NCBI GenBank assembly: GCA_020148145.1
Contig: JAHCRE010000021.1
Location: 2,538 to 66,537, forward strand
DNA length: 64,000 nt
Direction: 5' to 3'
Source: Patescibacteria group bacterium
Lineage (GTDB): Bacteria; Patescibacteriota; Minisyncoccia; Minisyncoccales; JAHCRE01
In this document: positions 53,507-64,000 of the stretch, piece after piece
Layout of the letters: each line of letters opens with the position of its first letter
Position numbering within the stretch: position 1 is the stretch's first letter
The notes under the pieces: model-generated
Database searches by the model: none
Told to the model about the DNA's origin: nothing
Seen by the model: only the letters and a program-made list of their open reading frames with translations
Translations under genes and position numbers: made by a program

Positions 53507-54757
53507 ATGAAAAAAACAAAAAAAATAAAGAGAATAAAGAAAACAAAGAAAGCGAAAAAGACGAAAAGAAAAAAAAGAGCAAAAAGAACAAAAAAGAGAC
53601 CCTTACCTGTCAAAAAAAGAAAAAAGATCAAAAAACGAAAAAAGATTAAAAAAAGAAGGCCTAAGAAAAAGGCAAGAGTGCCCAAAAAGAGAAAAGAGAT
53701 TATTACCCCAGAAAAAATTCAGGCTTTAAAAAAAAGGGGGAAAGAGCGAGGCTTTGTTACCTTGGCTGAGATTTTATATTTTTTCCCAAAAATAGAAAAA
53801 GATATTCAAGGTTTAGAGGAACTTTATGGAGAATTGGAAAAAGAAGAGATTCAGGTTAAAGAGGCTAAAGAACTTTTGGAAGTAAAAGAGATTCCTGAGA
53901 AAAAAAAGGTTCTTAAAAAATCTAGAAAATTAAAAATCGACCCAGTCCAGATGTATTTAAAAGAAATTGGAAAAGTATCTTTTTTGACTGCTGATGAAGA
54001 AAAGGAATTATCTAAAAGAATCGAGAAAGGAGATGAGGCGGCAAAGAAAAAATTAGCCAGGGCAAATTTAAGATTGGTAGTTTCTATTGCCAAAAGGTAT
54101 ATAAGAAGATCCCCAAATTTAACTTTACTTGATTTAATTCAAGAAGGAAATCGTGGCCTTTTCCGGGCAGTGGTAAAATTTGATTGGAGAAGAGGATATA
54201 AGTTTTCTACCTATGCTACCTGGTGGATAAGGCAGGCGATTACTAGGGCTTTGGCTGATCAGTCCAGAACTATCAGAGTTCCAGTCCATATGGTTGAAAC
54301 AATTTCAAAATACGTTAAGGTTAAAAGAAAACTTTTACAGGATTTAGGTCGAGAACCTTTACCAGAGGAGATTGCTGCTGAGATGGGAATTAATGTTAAC
54401 AAAGTCCATCATATCAAGAGGGTTTCTCAGAAAACTGTCTCTCTAGAAACTCCGGTTGGGGAAGAAGAAGATAGTACTTTAGTTGAATTTATCGAGGATG
54501 AAAAGACAATTTTACCATCTTTATCTGCCGCTAGAACTCTTTTAAAAGAAAGATTAAAAGAAATTTTAGTTGACTTGACTCCTAGAGAACAAAAGATATT
54601 AAGAATGAGATTTGGTTTAGACGATGGAATCACCCATACATTAGAAGAAGTAGGAAGAGTATTTGGAGTAACTAGAGAAAGAATTAGGCAAATTGAAGCC
54701 AAAGCCCTAGAGAGGATAAGAGAACATAGAAAGCTTAAAAAGTTGAAAGGATACTAA
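53507..54757 (+). CDS. rpoD: RNA polymerase sigma factor RpoD (sigma-70 family) with an extremely basic N-terminal tail
   Basis: Region 2 (LIQEGN.GL..AV.KFD...[16 protein letters not shown]) and region 4.2 ([20 protein letters not shown]). The first 65 or so residues are almost only K/R. Confidence 0.93.
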
Positions 54758-54794
54758 AAATATTTTATAATATAAGTGTCGCTTCGCGACACAT

Positions 54795-55124
54795 TCCGGC
54801 GTAGCGCAATGGTAGCGCGGGTGCCTGTGAACTTATACGCAGCTTCCTCGAGAAATCGAGGTTGAAAAACGAGGTGAATTGCGGGAAGCCTAATCCGCCT
54901 TAGGCGGAATGGTAATCCGCAGCCAAGCCCTGTGAGATAATTTCACATCTCATAGGGAAGGTTCAGAGACTATCCCGAAAGGGAGTACCCATTCAGAGAG
55001 TAAATTCTGAATGGGGAAGCGCCTCGCTCCCACAATTTTTGGGAGATGAGATAGTCCACCCTTAGTGGAAACACTAGGATAAGGTGTAAGCACTAGGTTG
55101 TAGGTTCGAGTCCTACCGCCGGAG
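54795..55124 (+). tRNA. tRNA-Asn (GUU) interrupted by a group I intron (exons 54795-54828 and 55087-55124)
   Basis: Spliced product: TCCGGCG-TA-GCGC-AATGGTA-GCGC-G-GGTGC-CTGT/TAA-GCACT-AGGTT-GTAGG-TTCGAGT-CCTAC-CGCCGGA-G. Discriminator G73 fits Asn. Thr(UGU) is the alternative if splicing occurs after U33. Confidence 0.8.
54829..55086 (+). ncRNA. Group I intron (IC3-like, no ORF) in the tRNA anticodon loop
   Basis: AATGGTAATCCGCAGCCAAGCC and GAAGGTTCAGAGACTATCC closely match blocks I recall from the Azoarcus tRNA-Ile and cyanobacterial tRNA-Leu introns. P7 GACTATC/GATAGTC. P1: exon CUGU pairs with GCAG (54839-42), with U.G at the splice site. Terminal G at 55086. Confidence 0.85.
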
Positions 55125-55125
55125 C
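55103..55125 (+). repeat. Direct repeat copy 1 (tRNA-Asn 3' end), GGTTCGAGTCCTACCGCCGGAGC
   Basis: Identical 23-mer recurs at 58172-58194. Confidence 0.9.
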
Positions 55126-55194
55126 AGGCTAGTGCTCGATTCGAGCGACCGAGATGCCTTTGGCTTGTGTCCAGTCCGCAAAGCTGATATTTTT

Positions 55195-55214
55195 CGCCCG
55201 AGAGTTTTTCTCGG
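55195..55214 (+). terminator. Hairpin module beta (CCGAGAG-TTTT-TCTCGG), copy 1
   Basis: CGCCCGAGAGTTTTTCTCGG. Near-identical copies end at 58221 and 63663; an inverted half-copy lies at 58572-58584. Confidence 0.5.
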
Positions 55215-55253
55215 ACTTTTCGTTTTACAGGGAAGGAGATATAATGAGGTAAG

Positions 55254-56888
55254 ATGAAAAAAGCGATTTTAATAATATCCGTAATAATCCTTGTAATTGT
55301 TATATTGGTTTTTCTTTTTTTTGTTGGTTTTTCAAAGATATCAACAAATAAGGATATCTATAAAACAAGAGAAGAAGTTATTGTTTCTTTTTCTGATTTT
55401 AGACTACTTCGCTGTAACACTAGCCCAAGTATTACAAACATGTTATTTTATTATGAAACTTCAGAGGGCTGGAAAAGAATAATCCACGAAGACTGGCATG
55501 TTACCTGGGGAGGCATAGCTTGCGTTGATGGTAAGCCCGTACACGGTGTTCATCCAGGAGATATACAAAGATGTACTTTTTTTATCCTTCCATATAAATC
55601 GGGAACATATACTTGGGACTCTAAAGTTTATGAATCAAAAGGGGTGGAAGAAATTTGCGGAGAATTAGAGAAACCCGTTCCTTCTTTTCAATCAAAACCT
55701 GCCTCTCCTGGCAAATATAAAGTAAAATTTGGCAGTGCACAAAAAATTTTTGAGATTAAGGAAGCGATACTGCTAGAACAAATAATACCGCAGGGCGAAG
55801 AACAAGAAAAAGAAACTAGATCAAATAAAGTTCTGACATTACTTACCAAGGTGCCGGCAGACTACAGAAACTTTGCTGATCGTTATGTTGCGTTAAGCTC
55901 ATTGGATATCACAACCGGAGAAAAAACAGAACTTACCCGTTGGGCAGCCTGTGAAGCAACTATTGTACTGTCTCCAGATAAGAATAAGATAGCATATTTT
56001 ATAAAACCGAATGATCGATGCGAAAAAGAATACTATGAGGGAGGTGATGGTCATACAGAATTATGGATATCTGACATATCGGGTAAAGATAAACAGCCTG
56101 CCGCGCGATGGGTATGGAAATTCACTACCCCAAAGTGGTCAGCAGATGGAAAATATGTTGCGTATGACCGGGTCATTGAACACCCCTATCCGCAAGAAAG
56201 AGAACATATATTACTTGTGTATGATCTGCAGAAAAAGACTGAGCAATCTCTTGGATCATTTTTCGGAGCGGCTCATAAGATTATTGGATTTTCTCAAGGT
56301 AGCGAATCGGTCTATTATAATGATGGTCAATTCCTCTACAAAGTAGATATCTCAAACCAAGATAGAGAAAAAATATATACTCACGAATATGGCTTTTATC
56401 AGCACTTTGTGGTATCTCCGGATAGTCGCAGCATTGCTGTCTTTAAAGAGGAGGACTGGTACGGAGGGAAAACGACTCCTCTGGAAACAAAGATTGGGGT
56501 AATCGAAACGTCAACCGGAAAGTATCGCGAACTCTATAATGGCACAGACGCCTTCGCATCTTATACTTACCGAAATAGCTTCGTTTTTCTACCAGATAAT
56601 TCTCGTGTAGTATACGGAACGGCAAAAAAAGGTGAAGGAGGGTTGTGGGCTATTGATATAACTACAGGCGAACGAAAGGAATTAGAGGAAACTTCATCTT
56701 CAACTCTGCACGGAATAGCGCCAATAGCGCTATCTGCAGACGGCGATCTTGTGCTGTATAGCGGTTGGGCATCAGAAACAACATATTATTATACGATCTC
56801 CCTATCTACTGGCGTCGTCACAAACCTTGAGAATACCCGTACCGCTACGCCATACTCAGGAGAGAGATTTTTGGATTGGTTAAATTAA
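55254..56888 (+). CDS. Membrane-anchored PD40/TolB-like beta-propeller repeat protein
   Basis: N-terminal TM helix. Repeated ...SPD...IAY / SADGKYVAY / SPDSRSIAV / LPDNSRVVY / SADGDLVLY motifs. Visibly higher G+C than the core genes. Confidence 0.6.
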   Translation: MKKAILIISVIILVIVILVFLFFVGFSKISTNKDIYKTREEVIVSFSDFRLLRCNTSPSITNMLFYYETSEGWKRIIHEDWHVTWGGIACVDGKPVHGVHPGDIQRCTFFILPYKSGTYTWDSKVYESKGVEEICGELEKPVPSFQSKPASPGKYKVKFGSAQKIFEIKEAILLEQIIPQGEEQEKETRSNKVLTLLTKVPADYRNFADRYVALSSLDITTGEKTELTRWAACEATIVLSPDKNKIAYFIKPNDRCEKEYYEGGDGHTELWISDISGKDKQPAARWVWKFTTPKWSADGKYVAYDRVIEHPYPQEREHILLVYDLQKKTEQSLGSFFGAAHKIIGFSQGSESVYYNDGQFLYKVDISNQDREKIYTHEYGFYQHFVVSPDSRSIAVFKEEDWYGGKTTPLETKIGVIETSTGKYRELYNGTDAFASYTYRNSFVFLPDNSRVVYGTAKKGEGGLWAIDITTGERKELEETSSSTLHGIAPIALSADGDLVLYSGWASETTYYYTISLSTGVVTNLENTRTATPYSGERFLDWLN

Positions 56889-57081
56889 TTTTGGTTTAAC
56901 ACATATTTTTGGATCACCTAAAATTGCGTCTTCTTGCCGGGTTTCTGCCAAGGCGGTTCAGTCCTAAGCTCTTCGAAGGGTTTTTGTTTTGGAAAGAATG
57001 TGGTAAAACGAATAATTCAACCTCAACCGGAGAAAAAGCACGAACAAACATCAAGTCAAAACACTCTTTTGTGGTCATCCA

Positions 57082-57144
57082 GTAGGTTCTAATGTTGTCC
57101 ACGACTCGGAGCAGGTTAGTGCTCGGTTTGAGAGACCGAGCCGC
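57082..57144 (+). repeat. Degenerate tRNA-3'-end + flank repeat (module alpha), copy R2
   Basis: GTAGGTTCTAATGTTGTCCACGACTCGGAGCAGGTTAGTGCTCGGTTTGAGAGACCGAGCCGC. Compare tRNA end + flank GTAGGTTCGAGTCCTACCGCCGGAGCAGGCTAGTGCTCGATTCGAGCGACCGAG. Confidence 0.75.
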
Positions 57145-57278
57145 ATCTCATTTTCAGAATCAGTTCGAGAAAAAAATCGCCCTACCCCGCTAGGAAATCG
57201 AACTTTTCCGAACAAATAGAAATTCGCCGACGAGGCGAATTTTTGTTAGAATGAAATAAAAGATAATCTAATTAGCTT

Positions 57279-58055
57279 ATGGAGATAACTTTTTTAGGCA
57301 CTGGCGGAGTATTAGGAGTTCCTGTTTGGTCCTGTAATTGTAAAGTTTGTAAAGAAGAAATCAAGAAAGACAAAAGAAATATTAGGACAAGACCATCAAT
57401 TTTAGTTACTTCTGGAAATAAAAGAATACTTGTTGATACCGGCCCTGATTTTAGAGCCCAAATGCTAAGAGAAGGAATAAAAAAAATTGATTATGTTCTC
57501 TTAACTCACATTCATATGGATCATAGTGCTTGCCTGATGGAATTAAGAGCTGGAGGCAAACTCCAGTTAGAAATACCAAAAGAAGTCTACGAAGGATTGA
57601 AAGAAAACAGAAGAGTTTTAAGTTATTTATTCGCCAGAAATCCAGACATCAAAATTGACATATTTAAACCTAAAAAGATTGGAAATCTTTTTGTTGAACA
57701 AATTAAGGTTAAACATAAAAAAGATTATTCAGAAGAAGAACAACCAACTTTCGGCTTTCTTTTTATAGAAAATGGATACAGGGTTGCATATATTCCTGAC
57801 TTCTCTGAAGTAGTAGATAAAGAAAAGGTAAAAGGCTTAGATATTTTTATATGTGACGGTGCAACTCTTGAGACTAAGTGGGGTCATATAGGTATTAAAG
57901 GGGGTATTAAATTATATAAAGAACTTAAACCAAAATTAATGATTTTTACTCATTTAAACCACTCGCACTCACATAAAGAACTTGAGAAATACGTGAGTCA
58001 ATTCGGCAATATTAAATTAGCTTACGATGGTTTAACTATTAAGGCAAATGATTAG
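57279..58055 (+). CDS. MBL-fold metallo-hydrolase (PhnP/PqqB-like)
   Basis: HIHMDH motif; N-terminal CNCKVC cysteine cluster, as in PhnP-type enzymes. Confidence 0.72.
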   Translation: MEITFLGTGGVLGVPVWSCNCKVCKEEIKKDKRNIRTRPSILVTSGNKRILVDTGPDFRAQMLREGIKKIDYVLLTHIHMDHSACLMELRAGGKLQLEIPKEVYEGLKENRRVLSYLFARNPDIKIDIFKPKKIGNLFVEQIKVKHKKDYSEEEQPTFGFLFIENGYRVAYIPDFSEVVDKEKVKGLDIFICDGATLETKWGHIGIKGGIKLYKELKPKLMIFTHLNHSHSHKELEKYVSQFGNIKLAYDGLTIKAND

Positions 58056-58129
58056 AAAAATTAAATTATCAGACAAGGTATCCTTATTGCCCAATTCCCA
58101 AAAAACCAAACTCCAGTATTGTACTCTTT

Positions 58130-58221
58130 GGAGCAGACCGAGCCGCCTATCCCGTTAGGGCGACCGAGAGGGGTTCGAGTCCTACCGCCGGAGCCCGTCG
58201 CCCCGAGAGTTTTTCTCGGGG
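58130..58221 (+). repeat. Composite repeat R3: truncated alpha + GTTAGGGCGACCGAG hairpin + perfect 23-bp tRNA 3' end copy (58172-58194) + beta hairpin
   Basis: GGAGCAGACCGAGCCGCCTATCCCGTTAGGGCGACCGAGAGGGGTTCGAGTCCTACCGCCGGAGCCCGTCGCCCCGAGAGTTTTTCTCGGGG. Confidence 0.85.
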
Positions 58222-58286
58222 TTGATTTTGAGTTAGAGATTTGATAGAGTAGATTTAGATCGTTAACAAAAAATGGGAGTGAGAAG

Positions 58287-58508
58287 GTGAGTAATAGATA
58301 CCAAAACATATATACTATTGGCTTCTTTGTCACATTTATCGGGGCTTTGCTTTGTATGTTCGGTGTAATATGGGAATCCTTATTCTTCATAGCTCTTCCA
58401 ATGATAGTTATCGGAATAGCCTTCACCACATATGCGTCGTGGGATGACAGAGATTTGCGAGACACGAACCGCTGTAAGAACGAGGCCCAACAGAAGTGTG
58501 TAATCTAA
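58287..58508 (+). CDS. Small two-TM membrane protein (GTG start)
   Basis: 73 aa and hydrophobic, followed by a clean terminator. Function unknown. Confidence 0.45.
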   Translation: MSNRYQNIYTIGFFVTFIGALLCMFGVIWESLFFIALPMIVIGIAFTTYASWDDRDLRDTNRCKNEAQQKCVI

Positions 58509-58534
58509 ATCCTCTCTATTTAAATAAGGAATCC

Positions 58535-58566
58535 AAGTCAGGTTTTTTAAACACCTGACTTTTTTA
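58535..58566 (+). terminator. Rho-independent terminator
   Basis: AAGTCAGGT-9nt-ACCTGACTT followed by a T-run. Confidence 0.7.
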
Positions 58567-58584
58567 TTCAACCCCGAGAAAAAC

Positions 58585-58647
58585 AGGTTCTAACATCGTC
58601 CGTCCCTCGGAGCAGGCTAGTGCTCGGTTCGAGGTGACCGAGCCGCC
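58585..58647 (+). repeat. Degenerate tRNA-3'-end + flank repeat (module alpha), copy R4
   Basis: AGGTTCTAACATCGTCCGTCCCTCGGAGCAGGCTAGTGCTCGGTTCGAGGTGACCGAGCCGCC. Confidence 0.8.
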
Positions 58648-58648
58648 T

Positions 58649-58682
58649 AAAAATCGCCAAGAAGGCGGTTTTTTAGTAGAAT
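58649..58682 (+). promoter_or_regulatory. Hairpin + T-run + TAGAAT -10 box module directly upstream of the ATG at 58689
   Basis: AAAAATCGCC-AAGAA-GGCGGTTTTTT then TAGAAT (58677-82), 6 nt before the ATG. Analogous modules lie at 57221-57252 (TAGAAT) and 61378-61409 (TATAAT). Confidence 0.5.
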
Positions 58683-58688
58683 GGGGTA

Positions 58689-60059
58689 ATGTTTATTAAA
58701 GAAGAAAAAACCAATATTAAATATCTCTTAATTGTAGTTGTTTTAGCTGCCATTGTTGGCGGAGGAATTTTACTTTATGCAAAACAGACCGTAAAAGAGT
58801 TAAGTTTTCTTAGCTACTTCCCAGAGATAAAAAAACCTGAAAAAAGGCCAGAAAAAAAGCCCGTCTATCTTAAATTATTTGAAGAAGTAAGGGAACAACT
58901 AATTTCTAAAAAAACTGATTTTTTGGAAGTTAATCTTGCTAAGATGAAAATAGGGCTTTACAAAAAGGGTCTTATGACAAAAGAGGTTTTTATTTTAACA
59001 AAAGGAGATCCTCAAGGTTGGGGAGGGTCGGCAGCTGGGATATATAAGGTTATATCTGGAAACAAGCTCAGCTTTTCGGTTATTTCAAATGTTTATATGC
59101 CATACGCTCTTCGCTATTACGGGAAGTATTACCTTCACGGAGAGCCCTATTATCCTGGGGGAGGGCAGCTTGATTCTTCAATTTCAGGAGGTTGTCTTCG
59201 TCTGAGCAACGAAGACGCAAAACTCATTTATGAATTAACCGAACTAGATATGCCTGTTTTAGTGACAGATAAAGAGAAGGATCACTATGAATATTCTAAG
59301 CAAAAATTATCCAGGTTTCCGGAAATTTCCGCTCAGAGTTATCTGGTGGCAGACTTGGATTCAGGATATGTTTTTGCCGAAAAGGATTCTCGGAAACGAC
59401 TTCCCGCGGCTTCATTAACAAAATTAATGACAGCTGTAGTTGTAGCTGAGAATATGAATTTAAGAAAACCTATTTTGGTAAAAGAAAAAATGCTTGAAGC
59501 TTACGGTTCTACCGAAGGACTGGAATCCGGTGAATGGTTTAGGGTGGTGGAATTGTTTTACCCTCTTTTGATAGAATCCTCTAATGATGCTGCCGAGGTT
59601 CTTAGTTATTTCTTAGGCAGAGAGAAAACTATCAAACTAATGAACGAGAAAGCCGAAGCTATTTTCATGGAGCAGACAGAATTTGTTGATCCTTCTGGTT
59701 TTGCTCCCGAAAACGTTTCCACGGCCCGAGACCTCTTTTATTTGGTCAGATACTTATTAAATAATCGTCCTCCAATTTTAGAGATTACCAAAGGGAAAGA
59801 GGTATTGAGCTTTGGAGAGGTTGATTTTGAAATTGAAGAGTTATGGAACAAGAATGTTTTTATTAACGACCCAACTTTTGTTGGCGGAAAGACGGGTTTT
59901 ATTAAGGCTTCTAAATACACGGCTGTGTTTATTTTTCGTTTTACCGCTCAAGACGGCACAGAACGTAACATAGTGATTATCCTTTTGGGCTCTGAAAATA
60001 ATGAGACCGATACCCAAAAAATTTACAAATGGCTTCAAGAAAATTATTTCGAAAAATAA
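58689..60059 (+). CDS. Membrane-anchored fusion: L,D-transpeptidase (YkuD) domain + D-alanyl-D-alanine carboxypeptidase (S11/PBP5-like) domain
   Basis: YkuD: YLHGEPY...SGGCLRLSNEDA. S11: ASLTKLMTA (SxxK), SSNDAA (SxN), GGKTGF (KTG). Confidence 0.8.
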   Translation: MFIKEEKTNIKYLLIVVVLAAIVGGGILLYAKQTVKELSFLSYFPEIKKPEKRPEKKPVYLKLFEEVREQLISKKTDFLEVNLAKMKIGLYKKGLMTKEVFILTKGDPQGWGGSAAGIYKVISGNKLSFSVISNVYMPYALRYYGKYYLHGEPYYPGGGQLDSSISGGCLRLSNEDAKLIYELTELDMPVLVTDKEKDHYEYSKQKLSRFPEISAQSYLVADLDSGYVFAEKDSRKRLPAASLTKLMTAVVVAENMNLRKPILVKEKMLEAYGSTEGLESGEWFRVVELFYPLLIESSNDAAEVLSYFLGREKTIKLMNEKAEAIFMEQTEFVDPSGFAPENVSTARDLFYLVRYLLNNRPPILEITKGKEVLSFGEVDFEIEELWNKNVFINDPTFVGGKTGFIKASKYTAVFIFRFTAQDGTERNIVIILLGSENNETDTQKIYKWLQENYFEK

Positions 60060-60180
60060 AAAAGTTATTTTGATTTCTCCAAATAAAACAGAATTTTTCT
60101 CGGGTTTTATTGTGCGGGGAAAGAGGTACAATAATATAAAAATAAAAGGTCGATAGATATAAATTAAAACAAATGAAAAT

Positions 60181-61233
60181 ATGTCTTTTATTATAGAAGG
60201 TAAAACTAACTTAAAGTATATTTTAATTATACTTATTCTGGCCGTCTTGGTTGGCGGGTGGGCTTTATGGTTGTCAATAGAAGAAGAGATTTCTCCTGTC
60301 GAAGAAATTAAAGACGAGGTTTTAACTCTTCTTGAAAATCTCAAACAAGAAACTGGAATAGATTTTTCAGGGATAGAAGAGCTTGAATTTAAGTGGATTA
60401 TTAAGGTAGACCCCGAAATAGGAGAAGAAACTGTAGCTGGAAAAGGATTTGAAGCTGAACGCATATCAAGTGAACAATATGATAGTATTGAACTGTTTTT
60501 AAAAGATAATGGCTTTGAAGTAGATCTTTACAATATAGCTGCTGGCACTATTTCAGAATTAACAGGATATATCAAAGGCAAGACTGTTTGTACTGTTGCA
60601 GGAGGTTTTACCGGATACAAAGAAGCAGAAGGCCAGTGGGTTCCGACTGATACTGATAATAACTGGGACACAACTATCAAATGTGGCAAGGTAGAGAAAA
60701 CCAAAATAGAATACGCAACAGAGGATTGGCAGGTTTATACGAATGAAAAATACGGCTATTCTTTGAAGTATCCTCAGCCCTGTCTTTATGGTCCTTTGCC
60801 AGGTTATTGCAAGCAAAGTCCACCAGAAGAAAGACCCCGGGAATGTCTGTGCTACTTTAATGCTGAAGATCCAAACAACGTGTCTCTGGCAACATTTACC
60901 GGCACAAAATCTGATTTAACCGGTGCTGAATTTGTTGTTTTCCATTCTATTTACGTTGATTATTATAGTCCTCCTGCTGGTACAGACCTGGTTGAATGGG
61001 TTAAAGAAAACTTTTCTTACTATGACGATATTCCCGATGAAATAAATATGGAAGTAGACGGAATACCAGCTTTAAGGGTTTACACTCCTTTTTCAGGAAT
61101 GGCCTGGTCTCAAGAAGATATCTACTTTATAAAGAATGATAAACTTTTTAAGATTAGTATGTTAGATGTAGACAACCAAGATAATAGGGCACTGTATGAT
61201 AAAATACTTTTTACTTTTAAGATTTCGGAATAA
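60181..61233 (+). CDS. Membrane-anchored/secreted hypothetical protein
   Basis: N-terminus MSFIIEGKTNLKYILIILILAVLVGGW is shared with 58689 and 63701. No recognisable catalytic motif. Confidence 0.5.
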   Translation: MSFIIEGKTNLKYILIILILAVLVGGWALWLSIEEEISPVEEIKDEVLTLLENLKQETGIDFSGIEELEFKWIIKVDPEIGEETVAGKGFEAERISSEQYDSIELFLKDNGFEVDLYNIAAGTISELTGYIKGKTVCTVAGGFTGYKEAEGQWVPTDTDNNWDTTIKCGKVEKTKIEYATEDWQVYTNEKYGYSLKYPQPCLYGPLPGYCKQSPPEERPRECLCYFNAEDPNNVSLATFTGTKSDLTGAEFVVFHSIYVDYYSPPAGTDLVEWVKENFSYYDDIPDEINMEVDGIPALRVYTPFSGMAWSQEDIYFIKNDKLFKISMLDVDNQDNRALYDKILFTFKISE

Positions 61234-61299
61234 ATTCCAATAATTCCCTCATCTGTCCCAATACTATCTCTGGATACTTAAACACCTCTTCCTATTTCA

Positions 61300-61370
61300 A
61301 GGTTCTAAAATCGTCCGCTAGACCGAGCATGCGACCGAGAGGCCCTAGGCGTTAGGGCGACCGAAGGGTC
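61300..61370 (+). repeat. Mosaic repeat R5 (tRNA-T-arm-like AGGTTCTAAAATCGTCC + GACCGAG motifs + GCCCTA/TAGGGC hairpin)
   Basis: AGGTTCTAAAATCGTCCGCTAGACCGAGCATGCGACCGAGAGGCCCTAGGCGTTAGGGCGACCGAAGGG. Confidence 0.7.
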
Positions 61371-61415
61371 TCATTTAAAAATCGCCGAAAGGCGATTTTT
61401 TGGTATAATAAAGGA

Positions 61416-62006
61416 ATGAAAACTAAAGTTTTAATTATTTTAATAATTTTAGTTGGTTTAACAGGGATTTGGCTGGGCTTAAGATTTATAATTGACAAAT
61501 CCAAGCCGCTAGAGCCTATTGCCTGCACAATGGACGCAAAACTCTGCGCGGACGGTTCTTATGTCTCTAGAATTCCGCCGAAATGCGATTTTGCGCCGTG
61601 TCCAGAAACAAAAACAATAAAACTTTATTATTATAATTACGAACTGGATAGAGACGAGTGGGGGAATATCGCTTGTAGTAGAAATGGATTGGTGCCGGTT
61701 GAGAGAAAAATTCCAATAACCAAGACGCCGATTCAGGATACTATCAAACTTTTGCTTTCGGGCAAACTTAACGATGAAGAGCGGGCTCAGGGAATCAGCA
61801 CAGAATATCCTCTGGAGGGGCTTTCGTTGAAAGGAGCCTCATTAGGGGAGGGCGTTTTAACGCTCGAATTTGACGATTCCAACAACAAAACCGTTGGCGG
61901 CTCCTGCCGGGTGGGCATTCTTTGGTTTCAGATTGAAGCAACGGCCAAACAATTTTCAGAAGTCCAGCAAGTCCGCTTTCTGCCAGAGGAAATTTTTCAG
62001 CCGTAA
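61416..62006 (+). CDS. Membrane-anchored GerMN-domain-like protein
   Basis: IKLYYYN...VPVERKIP.TK.PIQDTIKLLLSG.L..EE...G.STE.P....L......GVLTLEF pattern. Confidence 0.6.
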   Translation: MKTKVLIILIILVGLTGIWLGLRFIIDKSKPLEPIACTMDAKLCADGSYVSRIPPKCDFAPCPETKTIKLYYYNYELDRDEWGNIACSRNGLVPVERKIPITKTPIQDTIKLLLSGKLNDEERAQGISTEYPLEGLSLKGASLGEGVLTLEFDDSNNKTVGGSCRVGILWFQIEATAKQFSEVQQVRFLPEEIFQP

Positions 62007-62025
62007 GATAAACTATAAGTAAATT

Positions 62026-62400
62026 ATGACCAGAAATAAAAAAATTATCACTATCTTTGTCGCGTTAATTGTTATCGGGATAGTTTTTGTTGTCAGTTAT
62101 TATAAATTAATCAATAAAAACTCGGACGAAGTTATAGAGATAGCACAACAGACAAAAGAAGTTCAGGAATTTTTGAAGAAATATCCTGAAGCAAATCTAA
62201 AAGTAATAATCGGGGATATATTTGACAAAATTGCCTTTGTTGAATATATAGTTAGAACTGAGAAGGAAAGATTAAACTTTTTCATTTATATTGATAAAAC
62301 CACGGGGGAAATAGAAAGGATGGAAATCGCGGTTTTAAATGAGACAGGACTGGAATACAGCACTGACAATATTCTAGGATTTTTATTTAATCAACCATAA
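62026..62400 (+). CDS. Small membrane-anchored hypothetical protein
   Basis: N-terminus MTRNKKIITIFVALIVIG, similar to the ORF at 63036 (MARNKKIIIIATITALVV). Confidence 0.45.
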   Translation: MTRNKKIITIFVALIVIGIVFVVSYYKLINKNSDEVIEIAQQTKEVQEFLKKYPEANLKVIIGDIFDKIAFVEYIVRTEKERLNFFIYIDKTTGEIERMEIAVLNETGLEYSTDNILGFLFNQP

Positions 62401-62411
62401 AATATTTTAAA

Positions 62412-62669
62412 ATGCCAATCACTTTTGATACCGATCTTCTCGGCCCATTCTTATCAGAAAATCAGTGGATTTTTTGGTTGATTCTTCTTTGGACTTTACC
62501 TTGGAAAGGGGTGGCCCTTTGGAAATCAGCCAGAAATAGCCACAAGAAATGGTTTGTAGCCTTACTGATACTCAATACAATGGCTATTTTAGAAATTGTA
62601 TATATTTTCTTCTTTAGCAAGAAAAAGGCACAAAAGTCAGATAATTTAAAATCAAACGAAGTATTCTAA
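62412..62669 (+). CDS. Small two-TM protein (DUF5652-like)
   Basis: WKGVALWKSARNSHKKWFVALLILNTMAILEIVYIFFF pattern, recalled from a family common in CPR genomes. Confidence 0.5.
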   Translation: MPITFDTDLLGPFLSENQWIFWLILLWTLPWKGVALWKSARNSHKKWFVALLILNTMAILEIVYIFFFSKKKAQKSDNLKSNEVF

Positions 62670-62678
62670 CTACACCAA

Positions 62679-62909
62679 ATGAAAATTTCCCGAATAATTG
62701 CAATATTTCTTATTGTCTTTCTGTGCATCTCGGGGATTTCCTTGTTAGTTTCATATTTTCTGTTTAATCCTCACGACATATGTTTTCTTTGCCATCTCAG
62801 GAATTGCGTTTGGGTTTTGTATTTTGGTGTTAATCCCTCCGACTTAAATGGAGATGGTAAAGTAGATACACAAGATGTAAGTATTTTACTAAAACCATTC
62901 ACTAAATAA
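62679..62909 (+). CDS. Small membrane protein with a dockerin/EF-hand-like DLNGDGKVDTQDV motif (possibly a remnant)
   Basis: 76-aa ORF with a single Ca-binding-type repeat at the C-terminus. Confidence 0.3.
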   Translation: MKISRIIAIFLIVFLCISGISLLVSYFLFNPHDICFLCHLRNCVWVLYFGVNPSDLNGDGKVDTQDVSILLKPFTK

Positions 62910-63035
62910 TGAAGTATGGTTATCTTAGCCTAGTCCTTTTGATAATAAGCGGGTCCCGAATCAAGAGCCTTTGCTTTTGAGAAAAAAAAGAATTGCCCTC
63001 GGTTACTTATCTAAAAAATATTTCAAAAGACAAAA

Positions 63036-63218
63036 ATGGCCAGGAATAAAAAAATCATTATAATTGCAACAATTACTGCTTTGGTCGTTATAGTGGCATG
63101 GGCGCCGTGGCTGGATAATCAAATTCTGCACGATAAGGTGTTTCAGGAAAGAGCTAAAATAGATGGAACAATAGATAAATACACTGGTGAGCTGATTTGC
63201 GACTACAATGTGATGTAG
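63036..63218 (+). CDS. Small membrane-anchored hypothetical protein
   Basis: 60 aa, with an N-terminus paralogous to the ORF at 62026. Confidence 0.35.
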   Translation: MARNKKIIIIATITALVVIVAWAPWLDNQILHDKVFQERAKIDGTIDKYTGELICDYNVM

Positions 63219-63320
63219 GCGCCATTTGGCAGATGGGTGGCAAGTTGCGAGGGCGGTTACTATGTAACTTTTTGGGGTAAAATATTATTGCCCTAGGGCG
63301 GTTTTTGATATAATAAAAAT

Positions 63321-63518
63321 ATGGATAATAATCTATCTAAAAAAAGATGGTCAAAAGAAGGCGCGATTATTGGAGCAGTTGTTGGGGCAATTAGTGGATT
63401 TTTAACTGGCTGGTTAAAAGACGAATTCGGGTTTGATTTTTTAACACGACTCTTAATAGTAGTTATTGTTAGTATTATTGTTGGGGGGATATTGTATTTT
63501 TTGCTAAGGAATAAATAA
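63321..63518 (+). CDS. Small two-TM hypothetical protein
   Basis: 65 aa; TATAAT (63309-14) lies 6 nt upstream of the ATG. Confidence 0.4.
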   Translation: MDNNLSKKRWSKEGAIIGAVVGAISGFLTGWLKDEFGFDFLTRLLIVVIVSIIVGGILYFLLRNK

Positions 63519-63612
63519 GTTTTTTACACTTTTTCATTTTAGCTTAAAAACGCCCCGACCGAGGGGCGTTATGGGGCACGTCTAAAAACCGTCAAATTTG
63601 TTCCTGAAACCT

Positions 63613-63663
63613 AGGTTCTAGACCGACTACGGGAGCCCGCCGCCCTGAGAGTTTTTCTCGGGG
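63613..63663 (+). repeat. Repeat R6 (T-arm-like AGGTTCTAGACCGAC + acceptor-like GGGAGCCCGCCGCCC + beta hairpin)
   Basis: ...ACGGGAGCCCGCCGCCCTGAGAGTTTTTCTCGGGG versus R3 GCCGGAGCCCGTCGCCCCGAGAGTTTTTCTCGGGG. Confidence 0.75.
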
Positions 63664-63700
63664 TTTGTTTTGCGGGCGGTTTGAGTTATAATTAGACAAT

Positions 63701-64000
63701 ATGCCTTTTCTTACTCAAGGTAAAACTAGTTGGAAATATATTTTAATTGTATTGATTTTAGCTATTATTGTTGGCGGAGGTATTTTAGTATGGCGGTACT
63801 GGTGGATACCGAAAGAAAAAGGAAAGTTATGCTTTAATGAAAAATATGAGACAGAGCGAAGATATGTTGGTGGCTTTGGGAAATTGATTGATTTAACGCT
63901 CAAGAGTGGCGATAAACTTAGAGAAGTAATTAGAAAAGATGGGAATATTGCATTACAGGGAATTAGTAACCTCACTTGTTTGGAAATGTTGAATATAAAT
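63701..64000 (+). CDS. Partial (3'-truncated by the window) membrane-anchored protein of the GKT..KYILI family
   Basis: My translation is MPFLTQGKTSWKYILIVLILAIIVGGGILVWRYWW..., open to the window end. It is not in the ORF track because no stop is reached. The tracked minus ORF 63715-63975 is its antisense shadow. Confidence 0.55.
   Translation, partial: MPFLTQGKTSWKYILIVLILAIIVGGGILVWRYWWIPKEKGKLCFNEKYETERRYVGGFGKLIDLTLKSGDKLREVIRKDGNIALQGISNLTCLEMLNIN

Follow-up and report, generated by a model that had tools for sequence, protein, structure and literature searches.

A Patescibacteria tRNA-Asn(GUU) gene interrupted at position 35/36 by a predicted 258-nt IA-type group I ribozyme

The analysed stretch of DNA (64 kb in total, referred to as the window) belongs to a Patescibacteria genome and contains a tRNA-Asn(GUU) gene that is very probably interrupted by an IA-type, ORF-less group I ribozyme inserted between positions 35 and 36. 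The gene is composed of a 5′ exon of 34 nt, an intron of 258 nt and a 3′ exon of 38 nt (Table 1), and it is located directly 3′ of dnaG-rpoD. On recheck, all coordinates given in the preliminary description were correct, including those of GCAG (54839-54842) and CUUA (54832-54835). When the exons were joined, ARAGORN reported a tRNA-Asn(GTT) of 72 nt with U1-A72 and G73; both fit Asn, as had been proposed for G73. A CCA end was not encoded in the 3′ exon (55087-55124). The promoter-like site overlaps the end of rpoD and is situated 24 nt upstream of the tRNA.

The host had been described as CPR-like, and the rpoD gene agreed with this. Its top relatives were MAGs labelled Patescibacteria, Moraniibacteriota, Paceibacterota and Kaiserbacteria, with an identity of 54–64%. 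No close genome was found in the GTDB representative set (rpoD ≤64% identical).

RF00028 had been named as a check on the intron. A local search of positions 54700-55250 matched this model with 88.7 bits (E 2.2e-23), above the gathering score of 50. With default filters, a scan of all 64 kb at the gathering threshold gave no RF00028 match. This miss was a filter artefact, and reading it as a refutation of the intron would have been wrong. The core blocks quoted in the preliminary description were present and correspond to J3/4-P4-P5, J5/4-P4′-P6 and P6′-J6/7-P7. RF00028, the helices and the ARAGORN result for the joined exons uphold the original reading of a 258-nt group I intron splitting tRNA-Asn(GUU). 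Homologous loci were found in metagenomes at more than 120 places. Because of the E-value, these loci and the covariation of the helices, the observation is far beyond chance. A generic core probe (CCGCAGCCAAG..GGTTCAGAGACTA) gave more than 120 matches in viral contigs alone; it was unspecific to the family and was therefore left out of the metagenome scan. A homing endonuclease was not found in the intron, where just a 47-aa antisense ORF was present and was deemed meaningless. Rfam gave no match at E ≤ 1 in the downstream repeat region (55087-64000). Weak Rfam matches to YrlA, anti-hemB and LOOT (E 0.7–2.7) were taken as chance.

Table 1. Features of the split tRNA-Asn gene and its flanks (positions in the window; pairing and covariation refer to the homologous precursors)
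Feature	Position	Strand	Basis or remark
Promoter-like site, sigma-70 type: TTGAAA, 17-nt spacer, TATAAT	54743..54771	+	11/12 consensus matches; putative function
tRNA-Asn(GUU) 5′ exon: acceptor 5′ strand, D arm, anticodon-stem 5′ strand, loop C32 U33 G34 U35	54795..54828	+	Sequence and ARAGORN
P1: exon C32-U35 (54825-54828) and intron G1 (54829) with C10-G14 (54838-54842)	54825..54842	+	Covariation
Group I intron, 258 nt, IA-type, ORF-less	54829..55086	+	RF00028, helices, covariation
P2 hairpin, 6 bp, GAAA tetraloop (L2)	54846..54861	+	97.3% paired; 6/6 pairs changed on both sides
P3 5′ strand CGAGGUG	54870..54876	+	7 canonical pairs with 55020-55026
P4 (54880-85/54916-21), J4/5 AA, P5 (54888-90/54911-13), P5a (54894-54908), J5/4 AA	54880..54921	+	
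P6 (54922-24/54960-62) and long P6a hairpin (54928-38/54947-57)	54922..54962	+	
P7 5′ strand: G138, bulged A139, G140 A C U A144	54966..54972	+	5 pairs invariant, 55/55
P7.1 hairpin UCCC-GAAA-GGGA	54973..54984	+	Folds in 23/23 class members
P7.2 hairpin, 10 bp	54988..55015	+	Hairpin at exact position in 23/23 class members
P3 3′ strand CGCCUCG; P3/P7 pseudoknot	55020..55026	+	
P8 hairpin, 6 bp	55027..55045	+	70% paired, 5 covarying pairs
P7 3′ strand UAGUC and C229	55052..55057	+	Preceded by J8/7 AUGAGA (55046-55051)
P9 hairpin, 7 bp, GAAA tetraloop (L9)	55061..55078	+	82.8% paired, 6 covarying pairs
Omega G, final intron nucleotide	55086	+	
tRNA-Asn 3′ exon: U36 A37 A38, anticodon-stem 3′ strand, variable loop, T arm, acceptor 3′ strand, G73	55087..55124	+	
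Intrinsic-terminator-like hairpin CCGAGAG-TTT-TTCTCGG, then T-rich tail	55198..55224	+	Consensus match; putative function

The fold was compared among 55 homologous split tRNA-Asn precursors by DNA alignment and folding of each segment. The helices P2 to P9 of the window's intron were all fully canonical. Across the 55 precursors, 87.1% of the cells were paired, compared with 35–44% (a maximum of 43.7%) when the partners were slid. The covariation score was 0.435 against a maximum of 0.098, and none of 500 shuffles reached the observed score. The tRNA stems were 99.5–100% paired in these precursors, with covariation.

Four pairs of P1 (C-G, U-A, G-C and U.G) were invariant (55/55), and the fifth, which spans the splice site, covaried (GC 19, CG 17, AU 13, GU 3). 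The P1 loop (54830-54837) contains CUUA, for which a P10 pairing with UAAG of the 3′ exon had been suggested. This pairing is possible in the present sequence but is not conserved: the anchored pairing had a mean of 2.2 bp, and shuffled loops gave an equal value. Among the remaining helices, P4/P5 were 92.5% paired with seven covarying pairs, P6 was 91.5% and P6a 74.8% paired with 10 covarying pairs, and P3 was 77% paired over all classes with changes on both sides in four pairs. P5a was variable and poorly aligned among the homologs. The alignment of P8 was degraded because its length varies. GNRA loops were found in about 53 of the 55 precursors for L2 and about 52 for L9.

In P7, the pair G138-C229 and the bulged A139 were invariant (55/55), and so was G140-C228. 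The latter is probably the guanosine-binding pair, as judged from the analogous G264-C311 of Tetrahymena. P7 had initially been drawn with seven pairs (GACTATC/GATAGTC). The first five of these stand, and the last two were given up: C146-G222 pairs in only 2 of the 23 relatives in the same class as the window's intron, whereas C146-G155 of P7.1 pairs in 22 of 23. Likewise, U145-A156 and C147-G154 of P7.1 were each paired in 22 of 23, and C-G to U-A changes occurred in these pairs. The insert between P7 and P3′ is 43 nt long and comprised exactly two hairpins in all 23 class members. The stem sequences of P7.2 were unrelated among them.

The following course of splicing is proposed. Transcription would begin near 54778, from a promoter belonging to the gene itself, and run to the terminator at ~55215. 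The intron is predicted to fold into P1–P9 with the P3/P7 pseudoknot, the peripheral hairpins P7.1/P7.2 and GNRA loops on P2, P7.1 and P9. The internal guide GCAG would pair with C32-U35, which would put U35 into a U.G wobble. An external guanosine, bound at the G-C pair of P7, would attack the bond 3′ of U35. The terminal G would then occupy the same site, and the freed 3′-OH of U35 would attack the bond before U36 (55087). Ligation of the exons would result in the loop CUGUUAA with the junction GGGUGCCUGU/UAAGCACU, and the intron would be released.

The same 258-nt intron can also be placed 2 nt further leftward, at 33/34, which would turn the gene into a tRNA-Thr(UGU). ARAGORN with option -i made exactly this call (tRNA-Thr(TGT), intron 54827-55084), and with the 33/34 register, too, the 5′ exon ends in U, the intron ends in G and the loop has 7 nt. 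We nevertheless regard the Thr assignment as extremely unlikely. U33 forms a Watson-Crick pair with A13 of P1 in 55/55 precursors, and the only wobble is at U35, where U35.G11 is equally invariant. P1 moreover runs on across 35/36 with its covarying pair. The 5′ exon ended in CUGU in all 76 reconstructed homologs. As the metagenome probe demanded ...GTG/TAA..., conservation of the 3′ junction was judged from L017, L067 and the published table. Two published relatives have the 3′ junctions CAUG/UAA and AAAG/UAA, for which 35/36 is the sole possible register and 33/34 is unusable. All published relatives have a G before U36, also those without a GUG end, and the terminal G noted in the preliminary description is present at 55086. 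The body of the tRNA argues for Asn as well: intronless tRNA-Asn(GUU) genes from nine fetched genomes ranked nearest to the spliced product (65–77% identity), and all lie immediately 3′ of rpoD, i.e. in a conserved rpoD-tRNA-Asn position. Bacterial tRNA-Asn typically has U1-A72 and G73. The same Thr(UGU) miscall of split tRNA-Asn by ARAGORN/tFind was recorded by Nakagawa et al. and disproved by sequencing of the spliced product (PMC13011429). The original proposal of a P1 of CUGU/GCAG with U35.G at the splice site, and of splicing between 35 and 36, is therefore retained; no register other than 35/36 works in every published relative.

The subgroup had to be revised. The intron had been assigned to IC3, like the Azoarcus and cyanobacterial tRNA introns, and its P4, P6 and P7 core blocks do resemble those of IC3 introns; yet such blocks are very widely shared. 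An IC3 assignment is highly improbable in view of the conserved P7.1 and P7.2 hairpins inserted between P7 and P3′, an IA hallmark. IC3 introns are not known to carry P7.1/P7.2; in the Michel-Westhof scheme, P7 joins P3′ directly in them. A phage intron beside a terminase gene has this two-hairpin module, too (see below), and the host and site found here, Asn and 35/36, do not match those of classical IC3 introns. In a covariance-model classification, 25 of the 28 introns at 35/36 were IA, and the tRNA introns of Patescibacteria were nearly all IA and none IC (Nakagawa et al. 2026, PMC13011429). Based on the P7.1/P7.2 architecture and this published classification of its relatives, the intron is most probably of the IA type. 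A separate question is whether the gene is a decayed, non-splicing relic, i.e. a tRNA pseudogene, with tRNA-Asn supplied from elsewhere in the genome. The window covers 64 kb of the genome, and a second tRNA-Asn gene may lie outside it. Against such decay, which we consider very unlikely, the core helices are all intact and canonical, the U.G pair and the omega G are present, both exons are perfect, and the gene is flanked by promoter-like and terminator-like sites. Moreover, the intron of GCA_016700035.1 has identical J3/4, J4/5, J6/7, J8/7 and P7 sequences, and this includes the J8/7-P7′ block (GATGAGATAGTCCAC). That homolog (69% identical) spliced itself precisely at 35/36 in vitro, alongside an omega G-to-C control (PMC13011429). 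According to the same paper, copies of one anticodon with and without an intron rarely share a genome. From these points, we infer an active, self-splicing intron at this locus.

The preliminary description had considered an Asn host and this insertion point to be unusual. Both were already known: group I introns at tRNA-Asn 35/36 in Patescibacteria were described by Williams ('Asn.4Ug'; 2020, bioRxiv 10.1101/2020.01.27.920355) and by Nakagawa, Amikura, Omae and Suzuki (mSystems 2026, PMC13011429; preprint 2025, 10.1101/2025.07.03.662931). The split tRNA-Asn is a new example of these already described introns, with an identical insertion site. In common with the Patescibacteria tRNA-Asn 35/36 introns, it has the host tRNA, the anticodon, the site, P1 (CUGU/GCAG with U35.G), the omega G before U36, the phylum, the lack of a homing endonuclease and the ARAGORN miscall as Thr(UGU). 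Its 258 nt are typical of the family, which has a mean of 257 nt. The sequence is new. Identity to six published precursors was 60–69% over aligned positions, with identical core junction blocks, and the best metagenomic relatives were 70–81% identical, over parts alone. The P7.1-GUA-P7.2 module of the window's intron recurs in that of GCA_016699245.1 (Paceibacteria, 259 nt), whereas a single hairpin separates P7 from P3′ in the in-vitro-tested intron of GCA_016700035.1.

In long relatives, a 115-aa ORF with a motif that looks HNH-like lies in the P1 loop. Pfam gave no match for this ORF at E ≤ 1e-3. HNH was reported by Nakagawa et al. (PMC13011429).

With the classical IC3 tRNA introns, the window's intron has in common that it is small, ORF-less, probably self-splicing and located in the anticodon loop of a bacterial tRNA. 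The P3-P8 core, the GNRA-capped P2 and P9, the U.G wobble and the omega G are common to both as well. The classical introns are those of Azoarcus tRNA-Ile(CAU), Agrobacterium tRNA-Arg(CCU), cyanobacterial/plastid tRNA-Leu(UAA) and tRNA-fMet; they occur in other host tRNAs and other phyla. Their sites are 34/35 for Leu, 33/34 for fMet and 36/37 for Arg and Ile (PMC13011429; Williams 2020, 10.1101/2020.01.27.920355).

The phage intron is found in Rhizobium phage RHph_N3_13 (MN988507.1). It is unannotated, lies upstream of the large terminase gene and matched RF00028 with 60.7 bits. An exact 32-nt match to the window's intron extends across P6′-J6/7-P7-P7.1, and the architecture is shared: GACUA, UCCC-GAAA-GGGA, GUA, the P7.2 hairpin and GAAGCGC (P3′). 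The phage intron differs in that it lies between protein-coding ORFs and not in a tRNA, and the non-core sequence is unrelated.

Two wider readings were considered. Instead of being carried along neutrally, the intron might be kept as a control point, where the level of guanosine nucleotides or the conditions for RNA folding would gate the maturation of tRNA-Asn and hence the translation capacity. This reading, which we consider unlikely, arises because group I splicing needs free guanosine/GTP and because the gene is possibly the sole tRNA-Asn gene and follows right after the gene of the primary sigma factor. If true, the control point would act in a cell whose protein regulators are few. A similar regulatory speculation was made by Nakagawa et al. 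(PMC13011429). A recent exchange of introns between phages and Patescibacteria is suggested by the P7-P7.1-P7.2 module that is common to the phage intron beside the terminase gene; we rank it as weaker than the control-point reading.

The locus, whose lineage lacks a close reference genome, adds one further case to the IA-type introns at 35/36 of GUN-anticodon tRNAs in Patescibacteria, and it poses no new biological question. Its main value is practical, as standard annotation overlooks or mislabels the split gene. ARAGORN missed it without the intron mode and called it Thr(UGU) with the intron mode. As a result, such a genome would be scored as having no tRNA-Asn, and its completeness would be underestimated.

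The sequence at 54795–55124 agreed letter for letter with the preliminary description, which had proposed a tRNA-Asn(GUU) gene interrupted by a group I intron. ARAGORN called the joined exons (72 nt) as tRNA-Asn(GTT), bearing out the proposed cloverleaf. The spliced tRNA has a 7 bp acceptor stem starting with U1–A72, the discriminator G73 and the 7 nt loop CUGUUAA. Upstream lie dnaG and then rpoD, whose stop codon is 38 nt from the tRNA gene.

Without intron mode, ARAGORN did not detect the gene, and Rfam at gathering thresholds returned two other tRNAs only and no intron for the whole 64 kb window. The suggested Infernal search with RF00028 did find the intron when a short stretch (54700–55250) was scanned with lax filters: 88.7 bits (E 2.2e-23) versus a gathering score of 50. 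As the default whole-window scan misses the intron in the stretch 54770–55078, a missing RF00028 hit, which had been named as refuting evidence, would be a false alarm. The intron of L017, a fetched Patescibacteria locus, was likewise missed by an Rfam search in a 123 kb batch. The value of the window locus is therefore mainly for annotation. The cmscan alignment to RF00028 placed the 5′ half of the tRNA as P1/P2, and the helices were therefore derived independently. What cmscan took for P1 was a perfect 7 bp hairpin (GTGTCGC-TTC-GCGACAC, 54776–54792) that separates the -10 box from the start of the tRNA; this hairpin may represent a leader structure or a 3′ element of rpoD.

Features of the split tRNA-Asn(GUU) gene; intron nucleotide i is window position 54828 + i
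Feature	Position	Remark
Promoter-like site near consensus, upstream	54743–54771	TTGAAA, 17 nt spacer, TATAAT
5′ exon	54795–54828	
P1	exon C32–U35 and G1, with C10–G14	U35.G11 wobble at splice site
P2	intron 18–23 / 28–33	GAAA loop
P3	intron 42–48 / 192–198	
P4	intron 52–57 / 88–93	
P5	intron 60–62 / 83–85	
P5a	intron 66–71 / 75–80	
P6	intron 94–96 / 132–134	
P6a	intron 100–110 / 119–129	
P7	intron 140–144 / 224–228, plus G138–C229	A139 bulged
P7.1	intron 145–148 / 153–156	GAAA loop
P7.2	intron 160–169 / 178–187	
P8	intron 199–204 / 212–217	
P9	intron 233–239 / 244–250	GAAA loop
Omega G	intron 258	
3′ exon	55087–55124	
Terminator-like hairpin, downstream	55198–55214	

All P1–P9 pairs in the window intron are canonical, and the classical group I pseudoknot is formed, with P3 crossing P7. 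The intron contains no ORF of note.

L017 and L067 (a second Patescibacteria locus) carry split tRNA-Asn genes with junctions as in the window. L067 scored 107 bits with RF00028, and its gene again lies just after rpoD. A metagenome probe (P7 3′ strand, ...GTG/TAA and T arm) matched at least 120 loci; the lengths of the matches fell in a narrow band of 57–59 nt. Among the matches listed, 76 full split tRNAs were reconstructed, requiring acceptor-stem and anticodon-stem pairing only. Their introns were 190–898 nt long, and the 5′ exon ended in CUGU in 76/76. For the covariation counts, the window structure was projected onto an alignment of 55 precursors. Standard pairs occupied 87.1% of cells versus 34.7–43.7% when the 3′ partners were slid by 1–3 columns. 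Both-side changes occurred in 73 of 100 pairs, and the covariation score was 0.435 (at most 0.098 when slid); the observed values were reached by 0 of 500 shuffles. The cleanest helices were P2, P4, P6, P9 and the four tRNA stems. P7 is invariant and thus without covariation information, and P5a, P6a, P7.2 and P8 scored lower, since a linear alignment cannot hold both strands in register for elements of varying length.

In intron mode, ARAGORN calls tRNA-Thr(TGT), with the 258 nt intron shifted 2 nt to the left, at 33/34. Here too, the 5′ exon ends in U, the intron in G, and the loop has 7 nt; since both registers give such a loop, the loop length put forward as a check in the preliminary description cannot separate them. 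The geometry of P1 argues against 33/34. The proposed pairing of CUGU with GCAG (C32–G, U33–A, G34–C and U35.G at the splice site) is invariant in 55/55 precursors, U33 being Watson–Crick paired, and the pair of intron nucleotides 1 and 10 covaries (GC 19, CG 17, AU 13, GU 3). Hence, the only wobble U is U35, and the helix runs on across 35/36. Moreover, an intronless tRNA-Asn(GUU) directly follows rpoD in nine fetched genomes, Patescibacteria and Firmicutes-like, and these nine Asn genes are the tRNAs most similar to the spliced product (65–77% identity, above all other isoacceptors in the set). Two published relatives end in CAUG/UAA and AAAG/UAA, with no G where 33/34 needs one. For a homolog, Nakagawa et al. 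found splicing at 35/36 by sequencing the product, and they described exactly this two-base miscall by ARAGORN and tFind (PMC13011429). The Thr reading was rejected, and the site 35/36, as originally proposed, is upheld by four independent lines: P1 geometry, synteny, the tRNA body and published relatives.

The intron had been assigned to subgroup IC3. In the window, an insert of 43 nt that follows GACUA, the 5′ strand of P7, and precedes the 3′ strand of P3 forms two hairpins. Three architectures occur here across the alignment: no insert (about 20 sequences, e.g. L017, with a differing P3-P4-P6 sequence type GGGATAACGGTGAA...ACCGTGGGAACC), the window-type P7.1-GUA-P7.2 module (23 sequences) and a single different hairpin of the GGGAG...CTCCC type (about 11 sequences), also the type of the tested GCA_016700035.1 intron. 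In 23/23 window-type members, two hairpins, neither more nor fewer, take up the whole length of the segment between GAGACTA and GAAGCGCC. Their P7.1 is mostly GNRA-capped and its pairs are kept in 22/23, C-G being exchanged for U-A; the sequences of the P7.2 stems show no relationship. The intron of GCA_016699245.1 (Paceibacteria) shares this P7.1/P7.2 architecture. In the Michel–Westhof scheme, extra P7.1/P7.2 helices at this place are the mark of subgroup IA and are absent from IC3 introns. The window intron has both and is by its architecture IA, not IC3, in agreement with Nakagawa et al., whose covariance models placed 25 of 28 introns at 35/36 in IA and no Patescibacteria tRNA intron in IC (PMC13011429). 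The core blocks taken for an IC3 signature belong to the generic group I core; on its own, the pattern CCGCAGCCAAG..GGTTCAGAGACTA matched >120 viral contigs.

The first five pairs of the proposed P7 (GACTATC/GATAGTC) stand. U145–A223 is uninformative (T and A in 23/23 window-type members), and C146–G222 (2/23) falls away, C146 pairing with G155 of P7.1 instead. G140–C228 would be the guanosine site. The proposed P10 (CUUA/UAAG) is present in the window sequence as a 4 bp pairing. However, helices anchored at the first 3′ exon nucleotide averaged 2.2 bp in 60 family members, no longer than in shuffled P1 loops, so P10 is not a conserved feature. About 95% of members have GNRA tetraloops at L2 and L9, which would make tertiary contacts, docking as in solved group I structures.

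In 50,697 phage records, the sole match was an exact 32 nt across P7–P7.1 in two Rhizobium phages. In RHph_N3_13 (MN988507.1; fetched locus L321, 1088–1305, about 65814–66031, reverse strand), the match belongs to a group I intron that is not annotated (RF00028, 60.7 bits) and shares the P7-P7.1(UCCC-GAAA-GGGA)-GUA-P7.2 module of the window intron. This intron is flanked on one side by the CDS of a 'hypothetical protein' and on the other by that of the large terminase subunit; the two CDSs may be exons of one split gene.

The Asn host and the insertion point, put forward as unusual, were already published. Williams raised the number of bacterial tRNA types with introns from the classical four, all IC3, to 21 (bioRxiv 2020, 10.1101/2020.01.27.920355), among them 'Asn.4Ug' as quoted by Nakagawa et al. 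(PMC13011429). Nakagawa, Amikura, Omae and Suzuki (preprint July 2025; mSystems 2026, PMC13011429) reported 35/36 group I introns in 15 tRNA-Asn(GUU) and 3 tRNA-Asp(GUC) genes of 95 complete Patescibacteria genomes. The site is enriched in this phylum, and the introns were classed IA, with a mean of 257 nt and mostly without a homing endonuclease. Precise in vitro self-splicing was demonstrated for two examples, one from Asn and one from Asp, and an omega G-to-C change served as the control. The window precursor is 60–69% identical to their Table S3 sequences, and the blocks GGTGAATTGCGGGAAGCCTA, TGGTAATCCGCAGCCAAGCC, GGAAGGTTCAGAGACTA and GATGAGATAGTCCAC are identical to the in-vitro-active intron. 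The locus is a new sequence in a published, experimentally validated kind of intron; the core of the preliminary description holds, and its subgroup, two minor helices and novelty do not.

With high confidence, we read the element at 35/36 of tRNA-Asn(GUU) as a functional IA group I intron that splices itself by the standard two-step guanosine-initiated pathway. Fold, covariation, register, homology and tRNA identity were established in this analysis; catalysis and the exact junction were established by Nakagawa et al. on a homolog (PMC13011429), and the window copy is presumably active in splicing as well. The guide GCAG would read C32–U35 (CUGU), common to all GUN-anticodon tRNAs, which would explain 35/36 introns in Asn, Asp and Tyr genes, the published hosts (PMC13011429).

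Introns of 16 homologs exceed 500 nt. In 15 of these (524–619 nt; L214, L220, L225, L227, L239, L249, L250, L266, L273, L291, L303, L307, L311, L313 and L315), the P1 loop contains an ORF of 104–116 aa with an HNH-like CxxC...CANCHxEIH signature. Pfam gave no match to it at E ≤ 1e-3; ORFs at this position have been assigned to HNH (PMC13011429). L203 (intron of 898 nt) has a LAGLIDADG_2 ORF instead, downstream of P7. Several of the nearest BLAST relatives of the ORF-less window intron carry ORFs.

The guess of a CPR host was right: among 185,579 species-representative genomes, the best sigma-70 relatives were Patescibacteria MAGs (54–64% identity), labelled Moraniibacteriota, Paceibacterota, Kaiserbacteria, Falkowbacteria and 'Saccharibacteria' bins. 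No exact match to the window sigma-70 protein is on record, and this comparison gave no close reference genome among these representatives. The order rpoD, tRNA-Asn(GUU), with the tRNA immediately downstream, is conserved across Patescibacteria and several Firmicutes-like genomes, with or without intron (L003, L010, L024, L031, L036, L038, L048, L074, L080, L067 and window 53507–55124).

The tRNA 3′ end recurs downstream (55103–63672), with junctions near 55103, 57084, 58172, 58585, 61300 and 63614. An exact 23 nt copy (55103–55125 = 58172–58194) is followed by a terminator resembling the tRNA's own, and this terminator also accompanies a degenerate copy at 63614–63672. In three or four further units, tRNA-3′-like sequence leads into CAGGYTAGTGCTCGRTTYGAG..GACCGAG, which is followed by a terminator hairpin and a -10 box; a cassette ORF comes after each unit. 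These ORFs encode a 544 aa TM protein, an MBL-fold protein, YkuD plus S11 peptidase, a Germane-domain protein and small TM proteins. The arrangement resembles a cassette array or the result of serial integration at tRNA-Asn. The window shows no integrase, the repeat region had no Rfam match, and of 38 homologous loci only 3 had a comparable tRNA-3′ copy. Within the cassette region, the starts of three ORFs (58680–58762, 60175–60257 and 63695–63777) share a conserved coding sequence for an N-terminal membrane anchor (M.F..EGKTN.KY.LI...LA..VGG) at 65–75% DNA identity.
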